From contig CM097888.1 of NCBI GenBank assembly GCA_044892525.1, forward strand, positions 28,520,001 to 28,584,000: 64,000 nt of DNA, read 5' to 3'. The notes under the pieces were generated by a model. That model was not told where the DNA came from. It did not search any database and was given only the letters and a program-made list of their open reading frames with translations. This DNA is from Schmidtea polychroa (Eukaryota). Shown one piece after another: positions 28,520-60,700 of this stretch. The first letter of the stretch is position 1. Each line of letters opens with the position of its first letter. A program made the translations under genes and the position numbers.

Positions 28520-28596
<77 letters not shown>

Positions 28597-28601
28597 TATT
28601 A
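28520..28601. repeat. (ATT)n microsatellite
   Basis: Direct reading. Confidence 0.98.
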
Positions 28602-31440: not shown

Positions 31441-31681
31441 NNNNNNNNNNNNNNNNNNNNNNNNNNNNNNNNNNNNNNNNNNNNNNNNNNNNNNNNNNNN
31501 NNNNNNNNNNNNNNNNNNNNNNNNNNNNNNNNNNNNNNNNNNNNNNNNNNNNNNNNNNNNNNNNNNNNNNNNNNNNNNNNNNNNNNNNNNNNNNNNNNNN
31601 NNNNNNNNNNNNNNNNNNNNNNNNNNNNNNNNNNNNNNNNNNNNNNNNNNNNNNNNNNNNNNNNNNNNNNNNNNNNNNNNN
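31441..31681. other. Assembly gap (N run), at the position where the left arm carries the (ATT)n tract
   Basis: Run of N, symmetric with 28520-28601. Confidence 1.
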
Positions 31682-32049
31682 GGAGCTCTTAAAAATCTTT
31701 CGAATGATACAATTGGTTGAAGGTCTGACCTTATTCGACCTTTGGAAATTCAAAATATGATGAGTCATATGTCTTTGTTCCGTTAAATGTCATTGTTACA
31801 TCATGTCTTTGTTTTGAATCATGAGTCATGTCTTTATTACGCCATGTCTTTGTTTAAAATGATGAGTTATATGCCTTTGTTACGTCATGACTTTGTTTAA
31901 AATGATGATTCATATGTCTTTGTTTAAAATTTGACCTTAAAATGGCCCAAAATCGACTTTGACCTTAAAAGTTGACCTTAAACTATTCTCAAAATGACAT
32001 TGACCTTAAAATCTTCTAATTGATGGGATAGGGAATCGTTGATAACTGG

Positions 32050-37827: not shown

Positions 37828-38571
37828 GTATTTCAAAAAAATTAAAAATAAAAGCCAAAATTTTATTATTAAATGATCATAGTGTAAATATTAAAGAAAA
37901 TTAAATTATTAGCTGCAGTATTATTTTCTTTGATTATGTAAATCAACACTTTATAAACCATAATATGATTTTATAATTAATTAAATAAATCAACTACTAA
38001 AATGGTCTTCAAAGTGGATGCTCTTAAGAATAATTCCAATGCGAGTTCAAATCTATAAACCTAATAAGTTTCAATGTTAATTCGCGATAATATACAGAGG
38101 GGAAGTGCGGTTCGTACTGCTTTAGTTCCCGATTTTTAAGTAAGTAGAAATGGTATTATATAACGTTGTCTTCTACACGTACATCCTGGTTTAGGCAACA
38201 TTAGAAATGTGCCAAATGTGTGAATAACATCAAAGTATGAGCTCCATTGAATTGTAAATGCCCTGGTGTAAACTGGATTCGCAAGCTGCATTTAGAAGTT
38301 TAAGTCAGTTTGTCCCTACACTGTAATTTATTTTTAAATATGTTAGTGCTTAAGTGTATGTCTTTTTTTCTTTTTTCCCCCTATAGCTTAACCCTATTCA
38401 GTAAGAAGCCTTAGAACAAAGAGACACACTTAATCTAGAAATTTTAACGACTACAGAACAACTGAATTAGAAACAGAAGAAAATAAATTGGTTAAAAGCA
38501 ACTTGGCTTTACCTAATAAGGCCCATGAATTACCAGTGTATCTTTCGCTTGGATCGATCTAGAGAAGAGAT

Positions 38572-39563
38572 TGTGACGGAAAGCAGAGCGCAGCAATTAG
38601 TAATCCGTAAACAGCATGCATTTTTGTCGAAAGTATACAACGCGAGAGAGCTATAACACCGAATCCTGCAAGTAGCTTGGACGTGCCAAGCTATCACCTA
38701 TTATCCAGTGGTAATTCAATGGAGGCCACCCCAGCACCTCCAATTGCAATACTCCCCAGCAACCGCAGTACATGTAAGAAAAGTGGCTACATCTACTGCA
38801 AACAGAAACCACTATACGAAGAACTACAGACTGCGACGATAGTGAGCAAAAGCACGGTGGCTACAAAATTTTAATTCTAACCCACTTCCTCATATTTTTG
38901 TACTTACATTAGAAATGTAATCTTCTCATTTTTTGCTCAATTAATCTAACTAAATTTGGACAGGCTCCCCCTTTTATAGTTCAGTCAATTATGTATTGTA
39001 ATGCTAATTTTAATTGTATAAATAATGATAATAAGACTTTATAGCAATTTGTAATGGACCAATTATATTACTATTTCCTGAGCCTTTAACTATTAATTCA
39101 TGAACTTCATACTAGTCTCAATGTTCTATGTGTAAAGTTAAGTCTAAAGAGATTATTCGCTCGTTTCTCTCGGCCTACTAGACGTCTGAAAAACGAACCC
39201 AAAATCACTTTCACTAAATGTAATTAATTAAATTGTTCGTTGCACCGGCATACTAGACTCGATACAGCGAATCCTCAGTTTTGTGTAACGCCCTAGATCT
39301 AATTTACTACCTATTATATAGAGTTGGCTGCAGGCCAGAAAAAGGAAGATGTAGGGTTGGATGGGATCTCGTTCATCTAAAATAAAAGTAGCAATAAACG
39401 AATATCCTAATCAAACTTATATCACAATAATTTATGAGTAATAATAAAAACAAATATATTAAAACCTTTTTGTTAGTTAACTTGTTTGGCAGCCATTTTT
39501 ATGAATTGTTCTTGTTACCTGTCTATTTTTATTGAAAATTTTATTCCTAATGTTGGGGTTACA
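38572..39563 (-). repeat. Candidate 3' LTR (alternative start at 40956)
   Basis: Minus strand starts TGTAAC (39563) and ends GTCACA (38572) and contains TATAAAAGGGG (38978-38968). No second copy in the window to confirm it. Confidence 0.4.
38968..38978 (-). promoter_or_regulatory. TATA-box-like motif in the candidate LTR
   Basis: Minus strand TATAAAAGGGG; ATTAAA about 100 nt downstream (38875-38870). Confidence 0.4.
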
Positions 39564-40087: not shown

Positions 40088-40837
40088 TTATTTCTCCCAT
40101 TCAGTGTCGGCGAATAATTCGTCGAGGTTGAAAAACTCGGAAGCGTTCTCTTCCCACATTACGCCAGCGGCTGATATGATTCGCGCTGAGGGTCCCGTTG
40201 TTAGGTCGATGGACACGTGAGAGTTGCCACCGTTGGTTGAGTCCTCTATTGATGGGATGTTTGGCTTGGTAGTGGCGCGTTCGCGCTGTCTCTTCTTGCG
40301 CTCTGCACGAGAGAGTTGTTTTCGCTTGGGTTTGCTTGAAGATGCCACTTGCAGAAGGGTGACTGATACGGATGGACTAGCAGTGGGGGGCTTACTGGTA
40401 CCCGTGATGACAACATCTGGTCGCTTGGGGGACAATTCGGTTTTGACGCAGTCTCGGCACGGTCTCTTGAACGGTGGAGATGGATTCGAGGAAAGGTTGT
40501 GATGAGGCGGAAAGATGTCATCGGCCTCTCGGATGGGAATCTGCACAATTTTTCGGGTCGTAGCCGCCTGCACGTAAACCTTATGCAGTGCTTCGGATTG
40601 TTCTCTGATTAGACTTCTTTGGGCACGGCTCTCAGATATTAGCGCGTCCCGGCAATGCTCGCTACGATCGAGCTTCTTTTGGATCTCCTTCATCCGAGCG
40701 GGACTAAACCATGTCCCTTCCAGCTCGTCGATTTTTCGTTTATATCGACCGATCTGGGCTTGAAGGTCTTTAATCACTGCATTTTTATCTGAGCAGGAGA
40801 AGCAGGGACGTAGAGCTGATTTGTTGTTTGATAACAT
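40088..40837 (-). CDS. 249-aa accessory ORF: CxxC, coiled coil, basic NLS-like stretch, acidic-aromatic C-terminus
   Basis: PCFSC, PCRDC, KPKRKQLSRAERKKRQRER, EFFNLDELFADTEWEK. Strong polypyrimidine acceptor ttttcttctttAG just upstream; AATAAA ~130 nt after the stop. Confidence 0.7.
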   Translation of the reverse strand: MLSNNKSALRPCFSCSDKNAVIKDLQAQIGRYKRKIDELEGTWFSPARMKEIQKKLDRSEHCRDALISESRAQRSLIREQSEALHKVYVQAATTRKIVQIPIREADDIFPPHHNLSSNPSPPFKRPCRDCVKTELSPKRPDVVITGTSKPPTASPSVSVTLLQVASSSKPKRKQLSRAERKKRQRERATTKPNIPSIEDSTNGGNSHVSIDLTTGPSARIISAAGVMWEENASEFFNLDELFADTEWEK

Positions 40838-43800
40838 AATAGATGGCTAAAGAAGAAAACTATGATGACTATATCTAAAAATTTCGGATCAGATATACGT
40901 TTTATTCGCTATTGGATACTTAGTGCTGGAAGAAAACAAGACGAGTCGATGAAACAGGATCCCTCCCTTCTCCCTCGATTACTAATATTTTACGTATCCT
41001 TTACAAAAAATTATTCCTCAACGCCCTGATTGCTTCCCTGACGAATGCAAATTATTTGTAAAAATTTTAATTTTCGTCTATCGCGTTCGAGTTGGATTTC
41101 TATCTATCGCACATAAAGGCAATTTACGGATTTGTTCATGCCGGAGTGAATAAACCTATTTCATTACAAATACACTATACTACACTTCGTTTAAATTTCG
41201 CTGATTATTTGTTGTTATTCTAATGCAAAATAAGGTTATTGGACCAAATGCAACTAGTAAAAAACTTGCACCCCTACCTCAAGTAGCGGAATAAGTAACA
41301 ACTCGTAATTTCGTATAAACTATACGTCACTATTTCATGATTACCCCTTATCCATACCATACGGTGATATCGTCGTAGAAATGTAGCATCGTAAAAATAT
41401 TGTAATTACATAATAATTTGTTATCGGATTTAGTTTTCTATTGCGATACGTAGTTTACATGGAATATGAGAAATTTAAATACAATATTACTAGCTATTTT
41501 ATAACCCAAAAATTCCTGTAGATGCTTTGGTTAATTTAAATTTGGCTCGAAGGCTACTACTATTATTTGTAACATCTAATTAGAATTACGATAAACCTCT
41601 ACAACCCTTAGGTAAAACTTCCTATGGTTTAGTTATAAAGTTTGGTTTGAATTTTCGGTTATTAATTAAAATACCCCTTCAACAATTTCGATTTTTATTT
41701 AGAATATTTAATTTAAGCAAAATTATCTTTAATGAGTGCACTTTAGAGAGTCTCTTATCTTAGTAGTCGGTTACTGGTTATTTGGCTTATCTTTTTAGTG
41801 GTACGAATGACCTTTATCAGTAGTGAAATTTAAGAGTCAGTCATCTGGAAGTCACATCTCATGTCAGCATTATCTAATAGGACCACTGATTACTACTCAC
41901 ACACTAAGAATCCTAGAGAGGGTGACACATGGCGGCATTCCCTGCGGTGAGAGGCATTCGGAATGATTCTGCTGTTTCTCATGCATATTTCTGACCGGAT
42001 GACGCTACTCATAGTTATGTTAGCAGTATGTCTGTATGTATGGGTGCCTATTCGATGGAAATTTTATCTGTAACTATCAACCGTACTGAGCGAACTGCAA
42101 ATGTTACATCGCGTGTCGATTCCCATCTGAGCTTATGATGTTGGATTTATTTACTACGACTCGTAATTTCCTCAATATTGGATGCTTTTGAACGATGGAA
42201 GATCTCTACGAACCAGCCAACTAGACTCTATGAAGCATATTTCAGTAGTGGATATTTCGACGCGACAGCATGAAAATTATTCAATGGGTATTACCAGATT
42301 TTGTTAATATATGTGATTGATTACAGTATTATTGTGGTTTTATGTTTTACTTTTCCTTTATTGTAAATTCCTCCTCATATGCTAAGATTTGGATGTCGCA
42401 TCTGAAAGAGATGACCTAAATTAGATTTACTTTTTCAAAAATCTACCGAATGCAATTTCAACTTCTCGATATGTTAGAAAAACCAGCGATGGATGTTTAA
42501 TGGTATTTTCCCCCACATGGTAAGTTCGGATTTATAGACAGAAGTGGCATGAATGTCTTATAAGACGACTCTGGACAATACAGAGTTAATAGGAGAACTC
42601 CCTCAGTCGCTGTGAAGCACATATCCTATTTTCGAAAATTTCATAAGGTTTCCTTTCGGTCTATATTTCGGTACTCTGACAGATTTTAAGTCCTTCAGCA
42701 ATTGGACCCGTGAAGAAGCCTTCACATTTCGGCCCAATCTAGCTGCGTGATTGAAATACTCCATGTCCACCGGCTGAGCTCCCGAAGGCACCTCATACCA
42801 TGACATGGAGTATCTCAACTCCACGTTACTCGTTAATATTAGAAATCATAAAACTATCACTTCAAAATAAATATCCATAAAAATTATGTAAGAGTTCACC
42901 TGTTACCAATAAATACTTTTAAACATTTAAATTATTTACTTTATCAAAATCGTTATTCAGGATCAAATGAAAAGAGAGTCTGTTTAAATTTAAAAGTTTA
43001 ATTGCTCATTAAATATACACCTTTACTATTAACTTCGAAAAACAATATCATAAATAAAAATCCCTTACTATGGAATTAGGCTGAATCGGAAAATTAACGT
43101 TAGTCGTTCCAAATTAGTCTGATGATGGTTCGTCGAATGTCGATTGCTGTGACTGATTTCGAATTGCTGTGAAGTTTTTCGAATTAACTGTTGCTCTACT
43201 TGTATTGCTGATCCTTGAAATAAGTCTCCGTGAGTTGTAGATGTCTATGAAATGCTCGGGGTTAACAGTAAATTTAATGTTTTTGGTAGTTGTATATATA
43301 TCAAATTCTTATTTGTGCGGACCAATCAGAGTTGAGTACCGCTTATTTCTATTAATTTAATATAATTTTCTTGTTTTTAGGTTGTTTTCTCCTTATTTTC
43401 TTTATTTTTAATATGTTTTTCTATTTATTTCCTTAATTTCCTTATTATTTCTTGAATTCCTCTTTATTTATTTGTCAACTTGTTCTATTTTAATCTTTTC
43501 TTAATTTTATTTTTTGTTTTAATTCTTATGTCTTAATTATTATTTTCCTTATACCTTATTCTATTTTATTTCTGATTTTATTTATTTTATTTTTATTTTT
43601 CTTAATGTTCTACTTCCCTACTTTCTTATTTTTCAACGATTAAATTTTCGACTCAGCCCAACAAATCACTCGGGGACCCATCAAAATTGCGTCCCGCAAT
43701 TGCATAATTAACTTAATTCATTCATTCAAAAAAAAATATAACACGAACACGAAAATTATACAACAATGATAAAATTTTTATTGTAAGATCAAGGTCAAAG

Positions 43801-43888: not shown

Positions 43889-44557
43889 TTATGAACTGTT
43901 AACCATTGATGCTTCTGCTGGCGGCTGTTGGTTGGTTTGGGTATTGATGTTGAGATAGGTCTGACTATTAGATTTCGGCTGGATTGGTTGATTACTCGGG
44001 GTTCGAGGTCGGAATGGGGATGGGTTAAGATTTGTCAGGGGCACTTCTTGAGGATTTTGGTTCGAGGTTACTCTTATTGATGTCGAGACTCTACATCTAT
44101 TTCGAACTTCGTAAATTTTCATGAATATTGGTAGACATAGGAGGAGGGTTTCTGCGATCACCACATATATGAGATAATGGGTGTCATTGATTTCGGGAGG
44201 TATTTTTGGCTTTTCTACCAGATTTCCAAAATTCTCTTGTTGCATTTGTTGTTCCAACTGGTCGAATTGTTGAATTTGTTCGAGGATTTGTTTGTTTATC
44301 ATTTTACAAATGGGATTCTTTTTACACATTGTTTGGATGTTGTTGATGTGTGATCGGGTTGATTGAAGGGTTTGGATGATATGGGTTTTTACGGTCATCG
44401 GGTATGTGCATTGACTGGATTCTTGTTTAGGTTCTTGATTTTGATTTCGGTAATCTCGTACGATTTTCGGTTGGGCGTCTATTTGTTTGCTCTCCATCAG
44501 AATCATCAATACCATCATTGTTATCATTATCTCGCCTCGCATGATACTATTATACAT
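43889..44557 (-). CDS. Type I membrane protein-like accessory ORF (222 aa; likely start 44542)
   Basis: Signal-like MITMMVLMILMESKQIDA, Q-rich helical ectodomain with 3 Cys, TM YLIYVVIAETLLLCLPIFM, P/Q/N-rich tail. Confidence 0.75.
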   Translation of the reverse strand: MYNSIMRGEIMITMMVLMILMESKQIDAQPKIVRDYRNQNQEPKQESSQCTYPMTVKTHIIQTLQSTRSHINNIQTMCKKNPICKMINKQILEQIQQFDQLEQQMQQENFGNLVEKPKIPPEINDTHYLIYVVIAETLLLCLPIFMKIYEVRNRCRVSTSIRVTSNQNPQEVPLTNLNPSPFRPRTPSNQPIQPKSNSQTYLNINTQTNQQPPAEASMVNSS

Positions 44558-44597
44558 TCATTATGTTTATTTACAATTGGTTTTAATGACCCTTAAT

Positions 44598-45350
44598 TTA
44601 ATGGTTCTGATTTGGATTATTTTCGCCGATTCTCATCAAGGTGGACTCTGCTTTAATTACCCTGTGTCTTAACTCGGGCAGCATTTCCAATTGTCGGTCT
44701 TTTTCACGGGCTTCTCTCTTTAGATGTCTAATTTCCTTTTCCAAGCGTCTAATTTCTTCCCTTTTCTTTTCAAGGTTTCTTTTTAGCTCGATTTGTAGGA
44801 GATCTTGTTCGTTTTCTTGCAGGTAATTTTGTTGTTGATGTTTTCTTTCTATTTCTCTATATTTGCGGACCCACTTCCTCATTTCTTTACTTTCCCGTTG
44901 GTTTTCTTCTAGTTGTCGTTTTAATTTATTTATAGCTGTTTGGCGCTCCTTCGCCTCAGTTTTCCAGTAGTCTTGGATTACCTCCTTTGCTTTGAAGCTT
45001 GCCCTCTCTTTCCATAGTTCTTCCGCTATCTTTTCCCAGTTTTTCCCTCGCTTCCTTTGTTCGTGTAGCCATTCATTTTCCTCTTCCGTTTCTCTTTTTA
45101 TTTCCCCCAACGCTTCGCACTCTTTCTTTAACACCTTTATCATTTTCCGGTCCTCCAGGTATTTGTTTATTAATCTCCCGTTTTCGTATTTCTCTTCCCG
45201 TAACTCGGCCTTTAGCGTTTGTGTTTCTGTTGTTTCTGCCTCAATCTCTCCCTCTTCTACGTCGCTCATAATTTCTATCATTTCCTCGATTTTCATATCT
45301 ATAATATGTACAGTTAATGGTGCGCTATAGTGCGACTTATACGTATACAT
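44598..45350 (-). CDS. Coiled-coil accessory ORF (250 aa; likely start 45296)
   Basis: Continuous E/K/R-rich heptads; co-oriented with the element. Confidence 0.75.
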   Translation of the reverse strand: MYTYKSHYSAPLTVHIIDMKIEEMIEIMSDVEEGEIEAETTETQTLKAELREEKYENGRLINKYLEDRKMIKVLKKECEALGEIKRETEEENEWLHEQRKRGKNWEKIAEELWKERASFKAKEVIQDYWKTEAKERQTAINKLKRQLEENQRESKEMRKWVRKYREIERKHQQQNYLQENEQDLLQIELKRNLEKKREEIRRLEKEIRHLKREAREKDRQLEMLPELRHRVIKAESTLMRIGENNPNQNH

Positions 45351-45464
45351 TGATATAAAATTTAATAGTTTGGGTTACAGTCCCCTGAATACTTTTACAA
45401 TACTTTAATTTTTTTGTTTGGGATATACGTCCCGGTTTTTAGTTTTTCATCTTTTCATCCATCC

Positions 45465-46520
45465 TCATACGAAGGTTTCCTCCTGGCCTACATAACCTTC
45501 ATCACTATCGACCGCGGAATGTAACTGTATCGCAATAGGGTCGTATGGTAGGTAATATTGGGGAATTTGAGCTCTCAATTCACTAACTTCGTCTCTTAGA
45601 GCTCGAGTGATATTCAATTCCTCGTCGAGCAGATAGGTGAGATACCTTGTCTCTTCATCTTTCGCCTCTATCTGTTTGTCTAGGGCCTTGATTTTCTCGT
45701 CGCCCTTCCATTTTTCAATTTCTATTTCTAAGTTTTTAATATTTTCGGTGTACATTTTCCTTTCGTTTTCTAATTTTCTGTTTTTTCCCGCTAGGACCAT
45801 GTTTCTTTGTTCCAGCGATCCTTGTAATCCATTAAGGTCTCTTTTCATCTCTTCTACCTGATTTACTAATTCCACAACCCGTCCCGCTTGTTGGGTTATC
45901 ATCTCTTCCATTGCGGCATTCTCGTGCTCTCTTATGTCGCACTTCATTGCCAAATGTCGCTCAAACTCCATAGCCTTTGTTTGCCAGGTTTGGCTTCGGG
46001 CGGCGACCTTTCTCAACCTTTTTAATTCTTCCTTTATTATTAAATTCTCCTCCCATTTACCTTGTTCGCTTTCATATCCGAGTCTCATGGGCAATTCTTT
46101 CATCTCTTTTTTCATTTCTCTGTTTTGTCTTTTCCATTTTCTCGCTTCTGCCACTAAGTGCATCATTTTCCTGTCTTCTATTTGTTTTTCCGCTTCGCGC
46201 TTGGTGTTCTCATCGGTAAGTCTCTTTCTCGCTTCCTGCACCAGCTGCTTTAAGTAGTGGCTGTGTGCTTCTTGGCGGGTATTTTCTAGTGCCGCCCATT
46301 TTGATGCTCTTTTGCATGCTTCTGCTTCCGCTCTTAAGTTGTGTATTAACCATTGGTATTGACTATTCTCATCTTCTCTAGTTTCCTCGATGTGATTTCG
46401 GGTGAGATTAGTTAGTTGGAACATTACTTTGTTCCATTTTTTGTTATGTTCTCGGGGAATTTGTGTCTTGTTGACATTGGTTGGGGCTATCGCAGTTTCG
46501 GTTATTTTCTCTTGTGTCAT
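45465..46520 (-). CDS. Coiled-coil accessory ORF (351 aa)
   Basis: Long E/K/R/L heptad region and an acidic C-terminus (DSDEGYVG). Confidence 0.8.
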   Translation of the reverse strand: MTQEKITETAIAPTNVNKTQIPREHNKKWNKVMFQLTNLTRNHIEETREDENSQYQWLIHNLRAEAEACKRASKWAALENTRQEAHSHYLKQLVQEARKRLTDENTKREAEKQIEDRKMMHLVAEARKWKRQNREMKKEMKELPMRLGYESEQGKWEENLIIKEELKRLRKVAARSQTWQTKAMEFERHLAMKCDIREHENAAMEEMITQQAGRVVELVNQVEEMKRDLNGLQGSLEQRNMVLAGKNRKLENERKMYTENIKNLEIEIEKWKGDEKIKALDKQIEAKDEETRYLTYLLDEELNITRALRDEVSELRAQIPQYYLPYDPIAIQLHSAVDSDEGYVGQEETFV

Positions 46521-46713
46521 CTCTAAATCATAGACATCGATTAATCTTTTTATTATGAAAAAGGGATTTATTCGTTATTTACTGTTTCTTGGGAAATTTT
46601 CGCATCATTTTTGGGTTTTCGTATTTAGGGTTTTCATACTATTATTATATAATATTTTATTGGTTATATACACCGATATATACAGATTATTATATACAAC
46701 ATTATTCGATTGG

Positions 46714-48102
46714 TTACTCCGTTCTACCCTTCTCCTCTTTCCTCACGGTCATCTTGATATATATGGTATCATTTCTCGCCATATCCTCTACTCTTTGTTG
46801 TGAGATGAACGTAGGTGCTCCTGTTGCTGATCCTTCTTCGTTGAGGGGCCTCTGGTAAGCTATTTGATTCCCCGTTGTTTTGAAGCTTTGCTCATGTATA
46901 CTTTGGTTGTTCATCAGAGTAATATCGATTTTTGCCTGGAACGGCCATTCTAATATTTCGTCGTATTCTCCTTTACATAACAGAAAGAAAATCGAAAAGT
47001 GCGTATCTAATCCGGTTCCGTCCCCGTTGGGATATATCTTCATTTTCATTTTGTACCCATTTTTCCAAGAATGGAATGCAGGACTTGTTATTCTTGTCTC
47101 TTCTCCGGTTTTTGCTTTTCGTATTCTTTCTTTTACTCCCGTTATTTTCCATATGTAGGGTGCTGTTGGGGTTATCTCATTTAGATTTATTTCCCGTATT
47201 TTCTGATGTAGCTCCTTGGCCTGATTATTACTGATTTCTGTTCGGTTTATTTGCATCTTTATGTTTGCTCGGGCTTCTTCGAACGCTTCCCTTTCTTCTA
47301 GTAGTTCTTTGACTAACACCTTCAACGATGTTATCTCTATCTCCATTTGTTTTACTTTCTCTTCGCTTTCTTGTAACGCAGTCGACCACATTTCTGCGTG
47401 AGTTGAAGCATTTTCTACTAAATGATGTGGTAACTCACCTCGGTGTAGTAGTTTCTGACAACCCCATCTACCTAGTACACATGTCATTCTTTTCTTTTCG
47501 CATTCCCTTAGATGCTGTGCCACCTTCATTATTTCCCCTTGGTTACATCCGTTTGGGCATTCCCCACTGAACTCTGCACATACTCTCTCCTCTTGGACAT
47601 TGTGATGTTTGAGGGTGAGATTTATCCACGTATCTATTTCTCCACAGTGTTCACATCTTTCCAATCTCTCTTCACACTGCCTTTGATGCTCTTTTTCTTC
47701 GCTTGCTCGAATGGTTTTATGGCACCTTTCACACTGGCCAATTCTGTACATACATTCTCCCATATGTTGTACTACTTTCCATATTACTCCTTTCCATTCG
47801 CATGGGGCATTTTTGCATCCCAGGTTGGTGTTTAACATATCTTTCACTGCGGCTTTATCCTCGTTAGTGTCTTCTAAACTCGATATTAGTGTCTCTTTAC
47901 ACACCGGGCACCTCTGTGGTCTATTCTTTATTGCTTCACTGATACATTCTTTACATACTCTGCATCCACATTGCGTTTGGTGAGGTTCCTTTAACAACTT
48001 TTCACATATTCCGCACATAACATGTTTGTGTATTCTGATCGTCGTAGATTTTCGGACTTGCTCGACAATCTCTCTGAACTCTTCTCTTTGTCGTTTATCC
48101 AT
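46714..48102 (-). CDS. TRAF: TRAF-family protein (RING - TRAF zinc fingers - coiled coil - MATH), 462 aa, intronless
   Basis: RING CGICEKLLKEPHQTQCGCRVCKECI..CPVC, several CxxC..H..C fingers, MATH YIWKITG..SPAFHSWKNGYKMKMKIYPNGDG..HFSIFFLLCKGEYDEILEWPF..DTIYIKMTV. Confidence 0.93.
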   Translation of the reverse strand: MDKRQREEFREIVEQVRKSTTIRIHKHVMCGICEKLLKEPHQTQCGCRVCKECISEAIKNRPQRCPVCKETLISSLEDTNEDKAAVKDMLNTNLGCKNAPCEWKGVIWKVVQHMGECMYRIGQCERCHKTIRASEEKEHQRQCEERLERCEHCGEIDTWINLTLKHHNVQEERVCAEFSGECPNGCNQGEIMKVAQHLRECEKKRMTCVLGRWGCQKLLHRGELPHHLVENASTHAEMWSTALQESEEKVKQMEIEITSLKVLVKELLEEREAFEEARANIKMQINRTEISNNQAKELHQKIREINLNEITPTAPYIWKITGVKERIRKAKTGEETRITSPAFHSWKNGYKMKMKIYPNGDGTGLDTHFSIFFLLCKGEYDEILEWPFQAKIDITLMNNQSIHEQSFKTTGNQIAYQRPLNEEGSATGAPTFISQQRVEDMARNDTIYIKMTVRKEEKGRTE

Positions 48103-48187
48103 TCTATAATTATATGTACAAATAGTTCTTATCGATACAGGTTCGATATTTTATTTACAATTATTTACATTTTGAGCTAGGTTTGGT

Positions 48188-48571
48188 TTAGGGTTCGGAA
48201 GAGTCGGCTTCGTGTCCGCTCTCCTCTCTATTCATTAGCCATTCCGACCAGTCTTCTATTTCTGTCTGTTCTGCTTCCTCCATCATTCGGTCTATTTCAA
48301 TTTCCTGTCGACGGCTATATTGGGTTATCCTCTCTATCTCTCTTTGCATTTGTTCGATTTTTAACCTCTGGTCTTCAATTATCTTCAAATAACTAAATCC
48401 TCTGTTCATACTCTCGATCAGGTTTCTGTGCATCGTCAGTCCTTGTTCTTGCAAATTGGACACTAATTGTGCTAATACGGCACATTGTTGCTTCCATAAT
48501 TCTTCAGTTACTGTATTGTGGTTCATTTCGTTATTTCCTTGATCCATTCCTAATTTATATACACTTTTCAA
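48188..48571 (-). CDS. Small coiled-coil accessory ORF (likely ATG at 48547, ~119 aa)
   Basis: ORF between the polyprotein and TRAF; heptads and an acidic tail. Confidence 0.65.
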   Translation of the reverse strand: MKSVYKLGMDQGNNEMNHNTVTEELWKQQCAVLAQLVSNLQEQGLTMHRNLIESMNRGFSYLKIIEDQRLKIEQMQREIERITQYSRRQEIEIDRMMEEAEQTEIEDWSEWLMNREESGHEADSSEP

Positions 48572-48707
48572 CTCTTATGTAAATTTAATTTTATTTTATG
48601 ATTCCCGTTATTGTATAATATTGATACCGCGCTTATATAAAGATATAGTACTGTTATATACATAAGATATACTTACTTTTTACAATTATATACAGTCATA
48701 TTCCTTT

Positions 48708-51700
48708 CTATATACGTGAGTTTGGAGGGCGCTGAACGTTCCAGGCCTCCACCCACTGTCCTTGTTTGATATCACTTGGTCGTTTCACTCGATGTTGGAA
48801 GTTTCTGATTCGGGTCATTTCTAGTTCTCCGCGATGTCGTTTATCCTTAATTATTTTTATTGTTCCCCCCGTTATGATTAGGAATGCCCCTGTTATTATT
48901 ATCCCACTGATCCACATCATCTGCTTCACGCTTATACTCTCTGGTTTTTCCTTGTTTGTTAGTGTTGATATCGCTTCTGTACTTTTCTCGTTTCTTCTTT
49001 TGCCATTTCCTTTCATCATTTCTCGTATTCTTGCTATTTCCTCGTTCATACCCTCCTTTGCCATCTTTTGTATTTTTTCCATCTCTTCCTCCGAAACATA
49101 GTTGTCCTGAGCTTCCTCGCCGGTTTTCTTGTGCTTTCCTCCTTCGTCCTTTTCGTCGTGGTTTTTCCTTTTCTTTCCTCTTTTCCCCGGGTATCGTCGG
49201 CATTCTCTTTTTGATTCGTTTCTCCAGATACAAACCGTATATTCCTTCGGGGGCTGCTGCTGCGTCACATATTGATGGCATCTCTCACCCGGTCCTAATC
49301 TTGAAATACAGACTTTGTGCTCTTTTCTTGGTTGGAGCTGCGTTATTACTACTTCGCCACCTTTTCCTAGGTGTACCTCTTTTCCTTTGACGTTCGTTAT
49401 TCTCTTCCCGTCTCGATTTCGGTATGCTTCTTGTATTCTTACTTCTGTTATTGGTTCTGTGGCCTCATTTATCAGTACTAGTTTCTGATACGCTCTAGAC
49501 ATGCATCTTCCTAGTATGCACCTTTCCTTTAAGTCCCATTCTTCCTTTAAATCCCACTGCTGCTCTTGTGCTTGCTTTTTCTTTTCTTGCTTTAGTTCAT
49601 CCTCTTTGCTATCTTGATTCTCCGCTTCTTTGGTTTCTTTTATCGTTCTCGTCCCTCCCTGAGCTGTTACTAACTCTATCATGGTAAGCATAATTATCAT
49701 TAATATCATATTTGTCTCTATTTCTTTGTTAGTGAAAGGTAGGCATACCCTCTGTTTTCCATTATTCGATTTTTCCTCCTCTTTGGTCTTAGTTCCCGGG
49801 CTGTTTCCCTCTCTTTTCGTATCCGAATCCTTGTTTTCCGGTTTACCCTCCTCCGGTTCTCTTTTCTCTTTATCCTCCTTTCGGCCTTTTCCGTTATTGT
49901 CATCGTGTTTATCTCCCCCGCTGTCGTTTAAAATGTCGTCCTCGACATTTATATCGTTCAATAATCTGCGATATGCTGTTAGCACTCTGTTTCTTGCTAA
50001 TTTTGCTTCGAATTCAAACTCCTTTCTGCCCGTTGCGGCATGCCTCTTTCTATTCCATTCTTTAACTAACTCTCTCAATTGCATACGACGATGTTTCCCA
50101 ATTCGTTGTTGCTCGTTCTGATTTTGCGTGAATTTTAGGTCTTCTCTATTTAATACTACTAAAATAATTTTAGGCGTCCCCCCCTTAGTTAGGGTATTCT
50201 TTACCATCGCATTTTCTCCGTTTTCGTAGAATTCGTTTACATTTATCGCATATTTATTATTTTGTGGTACTCTCCAGGTTAATAATAATTTCATTGCTTC
50301 TAGATTTTTCCGTACCGTATTCCATTGAAACTGAGATGTGTTTTTGCACATATTTTCAACTTCTTCTTTTGTCGCATTTTTGCAAATAAATCTGATCATT
50401 TCTAAGTTTGGCTGTATGGTTGCCCAGTCCAAGGTGGAATTTCCTTCATTGGACCTTTCGTCTAGTTTCGATCCTGATTGATGTAGGATGTGGAGTGTTT
50501 TTGGGTGTATTTTCGTTATAGCTGCATACATCATGGCGGTTTCACCTTGTTCATTTTTCGTGTTGGTTTCCTCGCCCATCTCTCCAAGGATTCTCACGAT
50601 CGTTATTGCTCTATTTTCTTTCGCTGCTAGTATTGCTTGTTGTAGGGGTGTTCTGGAATCCTTCGTTACCATCGTAAATGCTCGAGGCAAGAAGGTTTTG
50701 ATTTTCCCGATATCTAAACCCGTGGTTTGATCTCTTGCGTATGTGTGTACGGCTTTTATTATTTTGGACAATATTATTTCGTCTGGCAGCTCTAGCATTT
50801 CCTCAAAGAACACTTCTTTTGCTTTGCGTATTATTGCCTCTTGATCTATACTCATTGATTTGGTTTCGATGACGTTGTTTGTGACCGTTTGGTTCGTTGT
50901 TGACTTTGATTCCCTGGATTTCTCATACCTTATTTTCGTTTTCTTTCCGTTTGGATTATTGATTCGTTCCTCTGCTGTAAGTATTTGGATAATATCCAGG
51001 TAATTCTCGCGGATGTTATTCATTGTGTCCATCATATATAACACACTTACCGTTTCCCAATATTTATTTCGTACTTGGTTAGTAAATTGGAATAGGGATT
51101 TTTCGAATGTGTCGATTCGCCCTTTTGCTAACTGTTCGTCCTTATGATTTGTGAATTTTATTCCTCGTTCTAGTAATTGATTCGGAATTTCGAATAAATG
51201 ATGTCCTTTCATAGCTTCTCTCATCAGCGTGTTCTCTCCTCTCGTGAACGCTTCGTTTACGTTGATCATATAATCGTTTTGAATTGGATTTCTCCATGTA
51301 ATTAATATTCCGGTAATTGTCGTCAGTTTTTCTTTGATCGCTGTTAACAATCCATCATACATGTTTCCGACTTCCCGATTGTCCTCATATGATAGTAGTT
51401 CCATCAATGACGTGAACGCCTCGGTACTTCTCCCTTCGATAGCATGGTGTAGAGCGTTTTTCCGCTCGTGGTCTTGTGTAGTTATTTTCGATCCGGTATC
51501 GAGTAATGCGGTTATAATGTCTTTTGTTTTGCCTCTGTTTGCGGCTATCATTAATGGTGTGTAACCTTGGTTGTTTGTTTGTTCTGTTGATCGCTTGCAG
51601 TCGTGAAATGCTTCTATTGTTTCTAGTATTTGCTCGTTGTTACCTACTTTCATGAGTTTGTGTAATGGCGTGTCTCCGTAATGATCTGTTATTGTAAATA

Positions 51701-54700
51701 ATATTGGCCATTGGCTTTTGACTACTCGCAATAATGGGTGTGTCCTTTCTCTATTTGCATAGTTCTCGATCATCGTCAATAATCCTCCTAATATTTCGAA
51801 ATCTAATCGATCTTTTGCCCATCCAGGTATTCTAATTTTTACCTCTTTTACAATCTTTTCCGCTTCTGATGGTTGGATACCTAATCGTCCAGTGATCGGT
51901 TCTGCGAGTTGTTGCATCATGTTCATTCGGTAGGTTTGCGAACGTGTGGTTAATGTACGGCCTTCTGGTTGACTAGTGGCTGTTTTTGGAATTGATTTGC
52001 ATCGTGCCACGTTTACGTATATTGGTCTGGTAAAGGGGTTATTTACCAATTTCACTCTTACATTAGTTTCGCCTACGAATAAGATCTCATATGGTCCTTT
52101 TCCGTTGCGTTGTAACTTTTTTGTGGTTCCTGGAATTAATTCCGGGGTTTCTATCATTACCCAATCACCTGTTTGGAACGTATGTTGCTTCACGTTTTTC
52201 TTTCGATCGTGTAAATCTTTATAACTTTCCTGGTAGAACTTGATATTTAATCCCGCAGTTTCCCAAATTTCTTGCATTCTTTCCTTGAATTTCGTAACAT
52301 AATCATCGATCTCCATATACTGCGATATCGGTGGTTGGTATTCCAGGTCCATTGGCATATTACATTCTCTTCCGTACATTAATTTGAATGGGCTCATTTT
52401 CGTTGATGCGTGAATCGACATTCTGTACGCCATAAGACATAGGTTTATATATTCGTCCCAATCTCGTTGGTGACGGTCAACGTAGTTTGATAACATTTGT
52501 ATAAGTGTTCCATTAAATCTTTCCGTCATCCCATTGGTTTGAGGGTGGTATGGAGATGTTCTTAGTTTTGCTATTTTGAAGTAATTTGTTACTTCGCTCA
52601 TTATCTCACTCATAAAATTAGTTCCCTGATCGGTTAAGATTTGTTTTGGTGTTCCATATCGGCAACATATTTCTTCTACCAAAATTTTTGCGATTGTTTT
52701 AGCTTTTTGGTCTGGCATCGCGAATGCTTCTGGAAATTTCGTAAGAAAGTCTGTGATCACTAGAATGTAAACGTTTCCTTTATCTGACTCTGGTAGTGGA
52801 CCAACTACGTCCATGGATATCATTGTCATTGGTTCTATTGGTACTGGCATTGGCGTTAAAGGTGCTTTCCATTTCGATCCAGTATTCTTCCTGGTTGCAC
52901 AAGTTAGACAATTTTTTACCCATTCGGTTACATCTTCAGTTAACGTAGGCCAAAAATATTTCTGTTTCATTCTTGCTAACGTCTTTTTCGATGACATATG
53001 TCCTCCCAATCTCCCATCGTGATATTGCGTTAGTAACTCTTTTCGTCGGTTTTCCGGTATACACATTAATCGTTTTTCCCCATCCATTATCAGCAACCAA
53101 TCTTTCTCTATAATATATCGGTGTCGGTGTTTATCCATATGTTCTTTTAATTTTTGGTCTTTCGCATATACATCTGTCTTTCCGGTTTTTACATAATCGA
53201 TAATTTGTTTTAATTCCGCGTCCTCTTGTTGGTCCTTTCGTAATTGACAGAAATCCAAATCTTCCGCTACTATCAAGCATATGCGTTGCATTTCTGAATC
53301 CACCAAATCTGGGAAAATAAATCTTGACATACAATCGGCGTTGGCATTTGCTCTTCCCGCTTTGAATTTTATAAATGGGGAGTATTCTTGCAATTGCATG
53401 GCCCATCGCATCAGTCTACTGGACGCTTCTTTATGTTGCCCTAACCACACTAATGGTTGATGATCTGTGGTTATGCATATCTCATGTCCCCATAGTAAAT
53501 ATCGGAAGTGTTTGATAGCTTGTATTATAGCCAATGCTTCTCGTTCTGTTACCGAATAGTTCTTTTCGTGCTTTTTGAATGTTCGACTGTAATACCCGAT
53601 TACTCTCTCTTTTCCCTCATCGTCTAATTGTCCCAGAATCGCGCCTGCCGCGTACCCGCTTGCATCCGTTGCCAATAGAAATGGCTTCTTAAAATCTGGG
53701 TGTACGAGGATAGGTGCTTCGATTAGTTTATCTCTCAGCGTTTCGAACGCCTGTTGTTGTTCTTTTTCCCAAATGAACGAAATATCCTTCTTTACTAATT
53801 CCTGGATTGGTTTTGCAATTCCTGCATAATTTTTGATAAATTTGCGATAGTATCCGCATAATCCTAGAAATTCCTGAACTTGGGTGACAGTTTTCGGTGC
53901 TGGACATGTTTTTATTTTCTCAATGTTTCTTGGATCTGGCTCCTTTCCTTTAGCTGACACTATGTGTCCTAAAAACGTGACTTTTTCCTTTGCCCAATCG
54001 CATTTTGATGGTTTGAGTTTGAGTTTCCACTGTCTTAATCTAATAAATACGTTTCGGATATCTTCCAGATGTTGTTCAAATGTCGCTGAATAGATTAGTA
54101 AATCATCAATATATACCATACATTGTTTGATTCCATGGGTGACAAAGTTCATACACCGTTGAAATGATGCTGGTGCGTTGGTCAGTCCAAATGGCATTTT
54201 TCTGAATTGATATAGATCTCGTCCCAACGTGAAAGCTGTTTTCTCTTTGTCCTCATCTTTGACTTTAATCTGCCAGTATCCACTTTTTAGATCTAAAGAA
54301 GTAAAATATGCTGCCCCTTGCAACATCAATAACATCTCATTGATGTCCGGCAATGGATAGGTATCTCTCTTGGTCACTGCGTTTAACTTCCGATAATCGA
54401 TACAGAATCGTTGGGTGCCATCTTTCTTTTTCACCATGACCACTGGGAATTGCCAAGGTGAGCAACTTGGTTCGATTACTTTTGCGTCCAGCATCTTTTG
54501 TACTTCTGCTTCGGCTATTTCTTTTTGCATTTCTGCTAGCTTGTATGGTCTTAATGCAATTGGAGTTTCATCTATGAGGGGTATTGCATGTAGGGTAACA
54601 TCGCCTGTACCCAAGTCTAAGTCTGAGATGGCGAATATATCTTTATATTCTACCAACAATCGGTGTAATTTTTTCTTTTCATCATTCGTCAACAACATAC

Positions 54701-57700
54701 TATCTATTGTCCATAATTCATCATCTTTGATCATCTCGTTGGTCACTTTCGGTAATTCTATGTCCATCATTGGGGTCAATCTTCCCAATTTTTCGTTCTC
54801 ATAAATGATTTTGTCTTCCTCTTCGAAATTCGTGATGTTGAGCGGTATCACTCCTTCTTGGTTTATTGTGATTATTTCTCTTGCGAGTGGTAATTCTCGT
54901 CGCTTTTCGAATGACTGGCTTGGTTCAAAGATAACTTCTCCTTCCATACCCGTATCCACTTTTATCTGACAAATCATCTGCGATTTTGCTGGTACTATTA
55001 TTTTTTCTGGACATCTGATGACTGCATTCATTTTGCATATTCTACCGGTTTTGTCTTTTAAACACATGGTTGTTAAGTCAATTACGACTTCTTTTAACAA
55101 TTCTGGCATCAAATCCGTTCCGATTATGCATGGTACGCTAAGTTTTGGTATTACTGCCAAATACGTTTCAATTTCGTTGTCCTGGTATCTCAATGTAGTC
55201 CACCATCTTCCGACCACGTCCACTGTTTCTTTACTACATGCTATGATGTGAATTGTTGTTGATTCGATATCCTTCCAGTGTTTACTGGGGATTTGATTAA
55301 TCGCTATCGCTGATACATTAGCTCCTGTGTCTATCATAGCATTGGTTTCTTGACCATTGATTTGGATCATGACTGTCACTGCTGGACCTCCAGGTAGACT
55401 CATTGCTGCGATTGTTCTTACGTCATCTGCTTGATCTACACTTTTGGTACGTCGTGTTGGCATATAATGCATACCGGGTTGACTCGGTAATTGCGGATAC
55501 ATATTTTGTGTCATGGTCAAAGCTGCTTGTGGTCCCACGATATCCGGTGGTATATAGCTTCCATTGGCGATCCAGGTGTTTGTCTTTTCCTTTTCCCAAT
55601 ATGGTGCCGTTTCCATTGGTTTTTCGTTTGGGTTTCTGTTTGGATAAAGACATTTATCGTTCCCGTTATCATCGTCGTCACTATCGCTGTTAGATGATTG
55701 GCTTCTAAATCGGTCCAAGAATTTTGGCTTATTCTTTTTCAATTGTCGTCTTGTTGCTTCATCGTACATTACTTTCCGGAATCGTCTGCCTACTTCCTCG
55801 TCGGTTCCTTTAATCTTTGTTAATATTTTAATCAATCGCTTTATCCGATGAATGTCTTTTGAGTGACCATGTAATACCATGGTTTTAGCTAAAAATGGTA
55901 AGAAGCCTACTATCATTTTCCAGTTAACTTTCTTTTCCCGCTTGTATATATCAAAACAAGCTAACATTTGTGTTAGTATTACTCTGACTATCTGAATTAT
56001 GAGTATGATCCCTAATATCCCGGCCATCATTTGTCCAAAAACTAAGAATCTTCCCCACATTGCTTTCATCATGTTTGACGTAGCTTGTTGAAAATGGTCT
56101 GGCGATAATAGCAGCTCGTAATTCGGGCCTGATTGATAATTTGTTCCCCCCGTTATTGTAACCATATTTGACAAAATGGATTCTCGTCTGGCTGGAAAGA
56201 GTACGTTAAGTCGTGCTGTTTCTAGGTCTTCTGGGGAATACATACCACCGTTTGACACGTCTATAGGTTTGAAATCCAGCTCTGTGGCGAGTTCTATTAA
56301 TCCAAATTTCTTGGGTTCCTCGGATATGGTTTTTCCCGGTAACATCATCCATTTCCCATCGGGTCTTTCATACAAAGGTCCGTATGCATTAGAACAGTTA
56401 AAGAGATTTGGGTAGAAACCCACTGGATTCATAATTCTAGTGACTGGTTGGACGAATCGATTTTGTCCTTTATAACGGATTTCTAATTCATTTGCACATC
56501 TCTTTTCGGGTAGTATGGATTTTTCTGGCATTCGTGCATACGTCTTGGTACACTGGTATGTGTACATCACTTCTCCTACCATTCTACCAAAGTGTCCATC
56601 TGGTAATGGGAGTGATGGCATCGTGTTATCTGGGTGCGTTATCGCAATAGCTAGCTTTGTTTTCAATATTTCTTTATTCAATGAACAATCGTTTTGTATC
56701 AGATCGTAATATACTTTTTGCAAGGTCGTTTGTCCGCGATGAAATAGAAAATCCATTTTATTATTTGCATATAAGTATAGTTTTACGTCCTCCGTTGCTA
56801 TCTTTCCCACTGCTCTATCGATTATTTGTCTCGACATATAGATGCCTGCGTAATTGGTTTTATATACTATACTGTCACATTTGGTGGTTTCTTTCTCTTT
56901 GATAAATCTCATACCTAGATCTGGATCGTCTGTGATTAATGCTGTTGGTGTCTTCTGCGTTGAAAGTCTCTTTTCTCTGGGAGATGGTGGCATTGGTTTT
57001 CCATTTCGCATTCTCACTCTGTCGTTTCCATCCTCGTCGTTCTCGTTCTCATATATTTCTCCTGTTACTTCATTGAACAAAGCACTTTTTAACAGTTGGA
57101 GTCGGCATTTTTGGGTATTAGCTTCATAGATTATAGTTGATACTCCTGTCCTGCATACGTTTTCTGTAGCTTTACACGCTGGGTTGGTCTTCATTTGGTA
57201 ATTATTTGCGTCAAATTGCGCTTCGTATTCTTTTAATTCGACCGTGTAAGACTCGATCACTACAACTCCCGATATTACCTCGCCTCGGATCGTATACGTC
57301 CCCCCGTTACATGACCCATCTGATGATTTTACTTTTCCGGATACGTAAACACTTTCGGTTTTAATCATTCCAGTTTGTCCGTGAATTGTCACTCCGTTAT
57401 GCATTTTTAGCGCTCCGGTTCTAAATAGCTCTTTACAATCCTCTCGTTGTATTGATACGATTTCTTTATCCAGACCAGGTAGTATAAGAGTCGAATACGA
57501 ATATTGTCCACAGTAATATGCGAGTACCTTTTTTGATACTACGCATTCCCTTGCTTGCGTTCTGATGAAATCTGATTCTTGATATACATGGTAAGTAACT
57601 TTTGTTCTCACGATGTCCAATTTGTTGGGTGAGGCTTGTCTGCATTCTTCTATGTCTCTCAATGAGTATTTATCCCTCATTATCATATTATCACAATCGT

Positions 57701-60700
57701 AGATGGTGAAACCTGTTGCTCCACTTGTGCACAACATCCATATCATCATAGTCATCATTAACGAATTTATTGATGCTTTTCTGCTTGCGGGATCTTTCAT
57801 CGGTAGTTCCCATTCTAGTTCATTTAACAGTTTTTTCAATCTAACTTGCATCGACCTTTCTTGCTCATTTTTCCGTGGCGCTTGTATCAGTCTTTTCCAT
57901 CCTCCGGCACGAATAATATGTGGTTCAATAGTATTCTCTATGATTGAAACGGTCATTTCCACATGATTTGCAAACTGTTTATTTGGTATTTTCCTCGCAG
58001 CTAGTCCCATCAAATTATACATCAAATAAGTGATTACCACTAGGTGATGTTCGTCATCATTTGCATTTGTCGTGAGCTGCTCAATCACTCTCTTTGTTTC
58101 GTCCCAATCCGTTTTGGTGGTTTTCGTTTTCTCTTTGATTAACTTTGGGATTATCCCCGAAATGGTGTGCCATAATTGTCTAGCTTCCGTACTGGCTACT
58201 TTCCGTTGCCACAAACGTCGAAGTTGTGGGTTTGTTATTATTAACATATCTTTTAACAATTCTCGTATCCATTTTTCTCCTCTTTCGATCGTTGGTTGGG
58301 CTTCCTTTAGATCCCATACTATTTTATCCAATTTTTCTAATCGAACTTGCCCTTGTTCTTGCTTTAATTGTTCTTTGGTTTTAAACTCAGACTTTTCTCC
58401 TTGTTTCTTAGGTCTTCCTTTTGCCCGTTTTTCCATCATCGTTCCGGCTTCTCTGGTATTTTCGTAATTCGGATTTCTTTCGTTATCCGTTCTGGGTAAT
58501 GAGCTATCGTTATTTCTTAGCCACTCATTCCATTCATCTATTATTTTATCGGTTTGACCTTCTGGTGTTACTTTCGTTGGTTCTCTTTGCTTCTGGAATT
58601 GTTCATCCGTTTCGGTTTCCGTAGTATTGTCGATGATTTCTTTGATGTTTAGTTTCGTGGGTTGTTGATAACTCGTTGATGGCTGGTTGTTAGTCCACAT
58701 TTCGGCTCCTGTCGGCCATCTCACTAATAGCGGTGATCTTTCTCCTGATTCATCGTCACTATCTTCCAGGATTATCTCTTCAACTTCTTCAGTTTCATTA
58801 GATTTACTTGGTGCTTTGTTCGGACTTGGAGTACTCAAGCTGCCTTTTGTTGGTTTAATAATTTTACTTTTCCTTTTTAACGGTTTCCCCAACGTTTCTG
58901 CCATTGTTAACACATTTGTCTCTTCCAATCTCATGGGTGTTATTCCGACGTCTGCATTATCGTCTAGTGATTTTCCGAATAGTTGCAGATGGAATGGAGT
59001 TTCATATGCTAATTTCTTTTTTAATTCTCTAATTTTTGTTGTTGGATGCACCTCTAGTTCCTCGATGCTCTTGTCCGGATACTTGATTCGGATGTGATAC
59101 CTCTCCTGGGTGTCTTGTGCCCATTCCTGATTTCTCCATTTTCGAATAATTTGTTCTAGCTGTTCTGGATACCATTCATTATATTGCCGGTATTCCTCTA
59201 TTGCCTTTGCCATTCCTCTCAGATTGTGGATATTCTCTGATGTTTTTAAGATGATATTAGCCAACGCTACTACCTGGCGTTTTTGATTTTTCGCTCCCAT
59301 TGCTAAAATATCGCCTAATTGTTTATATCTTTCTTTCTCTTCTCGTTCTCTTGCTTCCGTCGCTTCCTCGCCGTCCATATCAGCATATTCACGTTCCTTT
59401 TTCCTCATTGCATGAATATGTCTCGCTTCATTTTCGCTTTCTGATGTGACATCCGTCTCGCTTTCGTCATCTGATGTCTGTCCCCTTGCTTCCTCTTCAT
59501 ATTCTGGGGGTTCCTCTTCTTCTTCCTCCGATTCACTTTCTGTCTCACCAATGTCTGTTTCTACGAAGATTCCTTTCCGGATTTCCCATTCCTTATTTTC
59601 TGCATTCCACACTCTTTCCCATGGGGTTCGTCTGCAGGATCTGGTATTTAATTTCGTGATTTTTCCTTGTAGCTCTTTTTCTTTTAACCATTGTTGGTGG
59701 ATTTCAATTATTTCTGTAGATTTTTGATACAACGTTTTCATCCGGTCTCGTATTTCTTTTTGATATGTTACATCTCTTGTTCGGAATTCATCCATTGGTA
59801 CTATCCTGATTATCTGATGATTGTCCCACATACCCATTTCGCTTAACGAGGTGTCGTCCTCCGCTCGTAATATTATCTTATCGTACATCATGACTACATC
59901 ATCCACCATACCATCACTACTTTCGCTACGTACCTTTTCCGTTATCTCTTGGTTTATTTTTGATACCAAGTCATCCACTGTACTCTGATTGCTCATTTTT
60001 ATTCGTCGTTTTTCTTCGTTCGGTAACCATATGGTTATTTCCAACCTCTGTGGCTGGGTTTCTTTTAACCTTCCATATTTGTGGATCAAATTTATGGTTC
60101 TCCAATCACTCATTCGGAGCATTTCTGTATCTCGCAACCGGCTCATTAGTTCGTACATGGCTGGGGCTCGTCTGGTGATGAGTAAATCCCAGTTGTCTTC
60201 TACTTGTTCTTGAATTTGTTTGATCAGCTTATCCAGGTTTCGTCTCAGAGTACATTGTTTTATTTGTTCTAATTTCAATTTGATATTAAAATCATATTCT
60301 GCCTTGGCATCTTTAGCCCAATCGTAAATGTTGGCTGGTTGTTTTTCTTTATGCAACTTCAGTATTTGCGTTTCTCCTGGCCATATTAGTGCATCTACTA
60401 AGTGCATATCTGGTTTGATCTGGTCTCCTTGGTATTGATACAGGTATTCTTTCTTTCTCGAACTTCCCAAATGTTCTCGTATCCAATCGAAAAGTTCGTC
60501 GGTGACTGTATTTTTTATCCACATTCTTTCAAGTCCTCTACTCGTTCCAATTTTTATTACATACCGCGTGGTATCGGCCTGCTTCATTTTTTCCATATAA
60601 TTTTTTATAATTGATTTTTCCTCGTTTGGTATTAGATCTTTCTCGTTTCTTTCCAATTTCATCACTTTTTGCACGAATCGCCTGAATGGTATTACGTCGA

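Follow-up and report, generated by a model that had tools for sequence, protein, structure and literature searches.

Burro elements are abundant in planarian genomes. Described under the names GYPSM1 and Burro-1 to -4, they are giant gypsy-like long terminal repeat (LTR) elements with one giant open reading frame (ORF), of 4,873 and 5,140 aa in the reported cases (PMC6431247), and Burro1 has been reported to protect stem cells, as cited in PMC13465017. Here we describe a related element on the minus strand of a 64-kb stretch of Schmidtea polychroa DNA (GenBank assembly GCA_044892525.1, contig CM097888.1, positions 28,520,001 to 28,584,000; this whole stretch, numbered from its first letter, is called the window). 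In the ORF list of the window, five ORFs of like orientation lie behind a 4,617-aa ORF at 62561-48708, and the spacers ahead of these five carry a repeated octamer, TGTAHATA, which is probably a Pumilio-type (PUF) element. The whole analysis rests on this one copy of the element, and several of the statistical windows were set after inspection of the sequence.

The element shares with Burro a Gag with CCHC knuckles, an env placed in frame before the protease, ankyrin repeats, MATH/TRAF and accessory ORFs (PMC6431247). Two segments that may be ubiquitin-like and Bcl-2-like, on weak matches, come in the order expected of Burro. It differs in the position of TRAF, which is here a separate ORF downstream of the polyprotein, whereas Burro1 was reported to have it within ORF1 and the D. 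tigrina element to have it in an accessory ORF upstream (PMC6431247). Unlike in Burro1, MATH is thus in an ORF of its own, and a BIR domain was not detected in any of eight proteins at E <= 0.01 (Pfam), which argues that the element is not Burro1 itself. Judged by its architecture, it is a member or close kin of the known Burro-type, env-bearing Ty3/gypsy family; it is the regulatory layout, not the element family, that we regard as new. The available part of the Burro account is silent on accessory-ORF expression and on spacer motifs (PMC6431247), and the available parts of four further sources hold nothing on the expression of accessory ORFs (PMC8532177, PMC11410931, PMC13238120, PMC6312358).

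A repeated motif in the spacers

The spacers, numbered 1 to 5 from the polyprotein onward, measure 160, 85, 193, 168 and 55 nt (661 nt in total), in agreement with an earlier note on this DNA, which had pointed out five ORFs with short spacers behind the polyprotein. On the sense strand TGTAHATA is found in spacer 1 (48548-48707) at 48687-48694, 48655-48662 and 48556-48563, in spacer 2 (48103-48187) at 48162-48169, 48152-48159 (overlapping an AATAAA) and 48113-48120, in spacer 3 (46521-46713) at 46691-46698, 46677-46684 and 46665-46672, in spacer 4 (45297-45464) at 45305-45312 and in spacer 5 (44543-44597) at 44568-44575 (again overlapping an AATAAA). This amounts to 3, 3, 3, 1 and 1 copies, or 11 sense sites, and the antisense strand of the spacers has none. 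The earlier note had placed a single TGTAYATA before each ATG. An exact copy does precede three of the five ATGs, but the other two have the degenerate TGTCTATG (46529-46536, spacer 3) and the 9-mer variant TGTATAATA (44548-44556, spacer 5), and the picture of one motif per spacer had to give way to the uneven counts above.

Eleven copies compare with 0.53 expected, a count that none of 20,000 dinucleotide shuffles reached; nor did any of 20,000 shuffles have at least one copy in every spacer. The enrichment over shuffled spacers, which the earlier note had named as a check, is thereby borne out. In a de novo search TGTAHATA was the top gapped 8-mer, and any gapped 8-mer attained 11 copies in 14 of 5,000 shuffles. 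Composition-matched host windows contain 0.11 copies on average and 3 at most, 75,206 nt of host DNA contain 14 on both strands together, and on the sense strand none is present in the element's leader, in its coding DNA or in its 3' flank. Chance, or TA-microsatellite drift in AT-rich spacers, could be argued from the AT content of the spacers (about 75%), from the 10-nt tandem pair that two of the spacer-2 sites form and from the post hoc choice of some windows. Considering the shuffles, the host windows, the one-sided strand distribution and the lack of TATATATA in the spacers, however, we give this explanation almost no credence.

Duplication of one module was rejected as the origin of the spacers: with the motif masked, one of the ten spacer pairs (spacers 3 and 5; 2 of 300 shuffles) was above background. 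None of seven spacer stretches was more structured than its shuffles when folded, and Rfam gave no match at E <= 1 within 36000-64000.

The Pumilio response element has been published as UGUANAUA or UGUAHAUW (PMC5758885), and planarian Pumilio was reported to be expressed in stem cells and ganglia (PMC1896013). The 11 sites comprise six TGTATATA, three TGTAAATA and two TGTACATA. All have A at position 8, and G never occurs at position 5, which alone is not significant. Among single-mismatch sites it is position 5 that differs in five of six cases, compared with 12 of 197 in host DNA (p 5e-6). All 11 sites are in untranslated sequence downstream of a stop codon, eight of them 13-45 nt after the stop and three 16-18 nt before an ATG. 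They are thus confined to the first 45 or the last 18 nt of a spacer (p 1.6e-4, the windows being chosen post hoc), and spacer 4 is the one without a stop-proximal site.

The earlier note had taken the TGTAYA core for the stronger signal accompanying a splice acceptor. The motif is indeed strongly enriched, unlike AATAAA, but it is better understood as a repeated, predicted Pumilio response element than as a part of the acceptor, because most copies are far from any ATG and because none of the six introns of a PP2C-like host gene in the window has it within its final 30 nt (one donor coordinate in this set is one base off). The latter also means that the motif is not the host's ordinary acceptor. 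As a general feature of host 3' untranslated regions (UTRs) it was not seen either, with 0 sites in four stretches of 300 nt after host or transposase stops, a small sample. From this arrangement we suggest that, by means of predicted Pumilio sites, the element places its RNAs under the stem-cell control of the host.

Other possible readers of the motif

The Rous sarcoma virus stability element shields RNAs with long 3' UTRs from nonsense-mediated decay. A stop-proximal element of this sort, or CFIm, which reads UGUA, might be at work here instead of a repressing PUF protein. Such a reading would suit the eight stop-proximal sites, the lack of any site behind the last ORF, which is the sole one with a short 3' UTR (about 129 nt), and the enrichment of TGTA by itself in the spacers (17 against 6.4 expected). 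On the other hand, TGTA continues as nATA in 11 of 17 cases in the spacers compared with 18 of 394 in host DNA, and CFIm does not need nATA. The upstream UGUA was reported absent from planarian poly(A) signals and CFIm59/68 were not found (PMC5068929), which makes CFIm unlikely if the host is a planarian. In addition, spacer 4 is without the expected stop-proximal copy, and the papers found on Pumilio, nonsense-mediated decay and retroviruses did not, judged by title or abstract start, deal with it. Altogether, a reader other than a repressing PUF protein is improbable.

An internal RNA polymerase II promoter in each spacer, with TGTATATA as a TATA-like box, would account for the fixed orientation of the motif, for TGTATATAA, which includes TATATAA, and for GTATAWWA, present six times in spacers 1, 3 and 5; the DNA between ORFs is also where a promoter would be expected. 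Strict TATAWAWR, however, occurs in spacer 1 only, and TATAWAW shows no enrichment (9 against 6.2). The variable position of the motif would be base three of the TATA core, one that TATA boxes conserve. Sites 14-18 nt before an ATG would place the start site within the ORF, and there would be no need for three boxes in a spacer. We find internal promoters quite improbable.

Candidate splice acceptors and a predicted RNA 3' end

The five junctions quoted in the earlier note were all found at the ATGs given there. A TAG ends 2, 1, 2, 2 and 4 nt before the chosen ATGs of spacers 1 to 5 (at 48550-48552, 48104-48106, 46523-46525, 45299-45301 and 44547-44549, respectively), and all five spacers show this in 1 of 100,000 shuffles. 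Both the window of 0-4 nt and, for spacers 4 and 5, the second in-frame ATG were settled on after seeing the sequence, the later ATG being preferred to those at 45350 and 44557 because of the motif itself. With the three spacers of unambiguous ATG alone, 145 of 100,000 shuffles do as well. Among all ATGs of the element, a TAG lies 0-4 nt upstream of 37 of 513. The placement of TAG lends statistical support to the splice acceptors that had been suggested before each ATG, as candidate sites. All five candidates end in YAG, and the acceptors of the six host introns are similarly AT-rich.

The same region can be read as part of an unspliced polycistronic RNA translated by re-initiation or internal entry, in which a protein on the ATG-proximal motif would recruit ribosomes. 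TGT begins at a fixed distance ahead of all five ATGs (14-18 nt), each of these ATGs has a purine at position -3, and the short spacers are unstructured. Each spacer, however, has one to six upstream ATGs, the TAG would be left unexplained, and PUF sites in 5' UTRs were reported to be without measurable effect in human cells (PMC5758885), all of which makes a translated polycistron very improbable.

AATAAA or ATTAAA is present in every spacer, as the earlier note had observed, but AATAAA is not above chance (6 against 4.96 expected, with 7,459 of 20,000 shuffles as high); AWTAAA stands at 10 against 7.21 (3,238 of 20,000 shuffles as high). There are 38 AWTAAA between 48720 and 43075, and a U/GU-rich downstream sequence follows only the one at 43782 (T 0.56, compared with at most 0.34 elsewhere). 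This signal is the only canonical-looking poly(A) site of the cassette (43717-43782, minus strand; AATAAA at 43777-43782, U/GU-rich tract with 13 GT/TG dinucleotides in +16..+65) and lies about 107 nt past the last stop codon. It points to a single shared RNA 3' end after the last ORF in preference to cleavage in each spacer, and 3'-end formation in every spacer, as proposed earlier, is not supported at the sequence level. Of the two mechanisms that had been offered, nested mRNAs are favoured over an operon resolved by spliced-leader (SL) trans-splicing because AATAAA is at chance level and the sole U/GU-rich signal is behind the last ORF.

In an operon of this kind each spacer would be cleaved and polyadenylated and the downstream cistron capped by SL trans-splicing, and the stop-proximal PUF sites would still be in short 3' UTRs. 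SL trans-splicing has been reported in Schmidtea and operons in other flatworms, with a median intercistronic distance of 99 bp in S. mansoni, and flatworms are reported to use the same acceptors for cis- and trans-splicing (PMC12582326). Every spacer has both AWTAAA and TAG, AATAAA overlaps TGTAAATA in spacers 2 and 5, and a 14-kb intron would not be needed. These points have to be set against the chance frequency of AATAAA and against the spacer hexamers, none of which is followed by the U-rich sequence reported for planarian cleavage sites (PMC5068929). Moreover, the flatworm leader ends in AUG, which would be in frame at none of the five TAGs (chance 0.13, a weak argument), and internal cleavage would destroy the genomic RNA. 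We hold an operon within the retroelement to be unlikely.

Beyond the poly(A)-like site, the minus strand at 43075-43700 has an A-rich tract (A 0.66 at 43401-43600) and, by eye, a word resembling CCAAT (near 43325) and a run resembling TATA (near 43295). A truncated 3' LTR may begin in this region; comparison with 62562-64000 gave no match.

A proposed set of nested mRNAs with predicted Pumilio sites

In the model that we favour, a TAG splice acceptor would close each spacer, 1-4 nt short of the ATG that follows, and nested mRNAs with a common poly(A) site behind the last ORF would give rise to the five accessory proteins. A cis reaction, with a donor in the leader or LTR, is preferred only slightly over SL addition at the same acceptors. 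The spacers would, in addition, carry predicted Pumilio response elements (UGUAHAUA). Since every PUF-type site is upstream of the TAG of its spacer, it would be spliced out of the mRNA of the next ORF and kept in the 3' UTRs of upstream messages, leaving 11, 8, 5, 2, 1 and 0 sites from the full-length RNA downward, and repression or destabilisation by a host PUF protein would fall most heavily on the longest RNAs. In the reported human data Pumilio sites in 3' UTRs are the strongest and repress, as opposed to those in 5' UTRs, which fits the layout of the sites; additional sites act less than additively, which would limit the steepness of the gradient (PMC5758885). To the ORFs, the enrichment, strand, degeneracy and position of the motif, the TAG placement and the one U/GU-backed AATAAA, the model adds acceptor use, a donor, PUF binding and the sign of the PUF effect. 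Taken as a whole, we put it slightly below an even chance.

Several observations weigh against it. The 18,012 coding nt lack the motif, but with 1.2 copies expected this is not significant (P(0) = 0.30). The full UUNYAG consensus, known from parasitic flatworms (PMC12582326), is present in two of the five candidate acceptors, and branch-point-like words occur in three of the five, which is not above chance. None of the four donor candidates in the leader stands out, and a cis intron would be at least 14 kb in length, compared with 41-171 nt for the six host introns. The place of the 43782 signal relative to the 3' LTR also matters, because genomic RNA must reach the LTR; the poly(A) site at about 43760 must therefore be read through or sit inside the LTR. 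Finally, the TGT before all five ATGs, which belongs to a poor PUF site in two of them, is not explained by a purely 3' UTR role.

A further step, about which we are doubtful, is a graded Pumilio code. The level of PUF would pick between the retrotransposition machinery and host-manipulating accessory proteins (e.g. TRAF) by cell state, and the full-length RNA of a high-copy family could soak up PUF like NORAD. If so, the retroelement would tune the stem-cell RNA regulon of its host by soaking up PUF. The nested-mRNA model, if true, would mean that a retroelement rations its own RNAs through the host stem-cell RNA regulator, a layer apart from piRNA silencing. Its predictions from this element copy are exact and cheap: five acceptor positions, one poly(A) site and eleven PUF sites.

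Polyprotein and accessory ORFs

The 5' leader (62562-64000, minus strand) runs beyond the window edge and contains 16 upstream ATGs, 4 donor-like GTAAG sites and a repeat with a 74-nt period at 63871-64000 (56 nt, 96% identical), which perhaps corresponds to the tandem repeats drawn for Burro elements. Burro elements have paired long LTRs and exceed 30 kb in total; an LTR pair was not found within the window, beyond the edge of which the element extends.

The polyprotein (48708-62561, minus strand) is composed, according to Pfam and the other searches, of Gag, CCHC knuckles (three motifs are visible in the translation), weak ubiquitin-like and Bcl-2-like segments, a mononegavirus-type fusion (env) domain, protease, reverse transcriptase, RNase H, integrase, ankyrin repeats (Ank_2, E 2.3e-17) and C-terminal hydrophobic segments. 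Env is in frame between gag and the protease (Monjiviricetes_fusion, E 2e-70, best stretch 1868-2207; protease at 2397; Pfam). The ubiquitin (E 0.0033) and Bcl-2 (E 0.018) matches before env are both weak Pfam matches below the cut-off. For the Bcl-2-like segment, a single-sequence structure model had a predicted local distance difference test score of 58.7, the Foldseek matches listed were all of the Bcl-2 family but none was significant (best E 0.25), and a sequence search of the PDB gave no match. The end of the polyprotein (residues 4285-4571, within 48708-49900 on the minus strand) has signal-peptide-like and transmembrane-like segments; their position after the ankyrins suggests a second embedded membrane protein.

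The same env family was found in 13 of 78 long relatives of the pol region. In a tree of reverse transcriptase and RNase H, which took in the window element and its 39 best-scoring matches, 12 of the 13 other env-in-frame polyproteins group with the window element with support of 100/97, the branch of the latter being long. These thirteen are gag-pol-type polyproteins (P0023, P0025, P0026, P0028, P0029, P0031, P0032, P0035-P0038, P0040 and P0048), one of which is labelled bacterial. To judge from these relatives, the env-in-frame lineage may be wider than planarians.

All five accessory ORFs are on the minus strand and score higher in frame than out of frame when their codon use is compared with that of the polyprotein, with small margins for the first and the fourth. 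The first (48188-48547, 119 aa) has codon use like the polyprotein and belongs to no family, relatives being absent from Pfam and from 81 fetched proteins, the only sets checked. The second (46714-48102, 462 aa) is TRAF-like, with an N-terminal RING and a C-terminal MATH (TRAF-mep_MATH, E 1.9e-27 in Pfam; TRAF2, E 1.7e-28 in the PDB). The third (45465-46520, 351 aa) is charged and probably coiled-coil (by eye), with no relatives among 2,038 candidates of 193-615 aa. The fourth (44598-45296, 232 aa, or 250 aa if counted from the ATG at 45350) is probably coiled-coil as well, with a weak Fib_alpha match (E 0.0013) in a comparison that covered Pfam and the 81 fetched proteins. The fifth (43889-44542, 217 aa) begins, by eye, like a signal peptide and contains a single transmembrane segment (residues 123-141), with no relatives among 1.84 billion representatives. 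In an exact look-up, none of ten window proteins was present in the protein collection, and a second copy of the cassette was not found within the window.

Surrounding region

Beside the cassette, a 249-aa ORF (40088-40837, minus strand) of no Pfam family lacks the polyprotein-like codon use and has an inverted partial copy at 38474-38674 (plus strand); it probably represents a mobile element of its own. The broken remains of an env from a related element lie at 17677-17915 (plus strand, 38-44% identity) and adjoin one of two copies of a 263-nt stretch, which are 99% identical and 10 kb apart (7283-7545 and 17349-17611). The host DNA is 28% GC with short introns. The PP2C-family gene mentioned above (18618-20165, plus strand) has introns of 41-171 nt with weakly pyrimidine-rich acceptors. 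An intronless lysine-rich ORF of 304 aa with a 36-nt repeat (24560-25474, minus strand) is histone H1-like by eye, and an intact 649-aa hAT-type transposase ORF lies at 12299-14248 (plus strand). Inverted-repeat arms at 28289-28775 and 31252-31981 (88-96% complementary) flank assembly gaps, and between them is a 151-aa ORF (30434-30889) resembling, by eye, a fragment of DNA polymerase B.

Comparison with known systems

Complex retroviruses make nested spliced subgenomic mRNAs, and errantiviruses make a spliced env mRNA. The present element resembles them in having several downstream ORFs, a candidate acceptor near each ATG and one common 3' end, but differs in that its env is within the polyprotein, its ORFs do not overlap and its spacers have PUF-type sites. 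With the SL operons of flatworms and nematodes it shares short intergenic spacers and a YAG near the ATG (PMC12582326); unlike in those operons, the individual spacers give no hint of poly(A) sites of their own, and the ORFs belong to a retroelement. As far as the available part of that source goes, flatworm acceptors have no enriched motif nearby besides UUNYAG (PMC12582326).

Neither PUF-site arrays nor leader-resolved accessory cassettes were found reported in LTR elements in the literature searched, judged by title or abstract start. The likeness to known Pumilio response elements lies in the same 8-mer, the tolerance at position 5, the sense strand and the untranslated positions (PMC5758885). 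In density of sites the RNA is comparable to NORAD, with 11 sites in 4.1 kb here against 17 in NORAD (PMC5758885). Compared with such site-dense RNAs, however, the sites are here predicted and split among the spacers of a retroelement, and three of them abut a candidate splice acceptor. A viral RNA that uses host Pumilio has been reported for the HSURs of Herpesvirus saimiri (PMC12687793, PMC13692250). These are small non-coding RNAs of a DNA virus, whereas in the element described here the predicted sites are located in the mRNA spacers of a retroelement.

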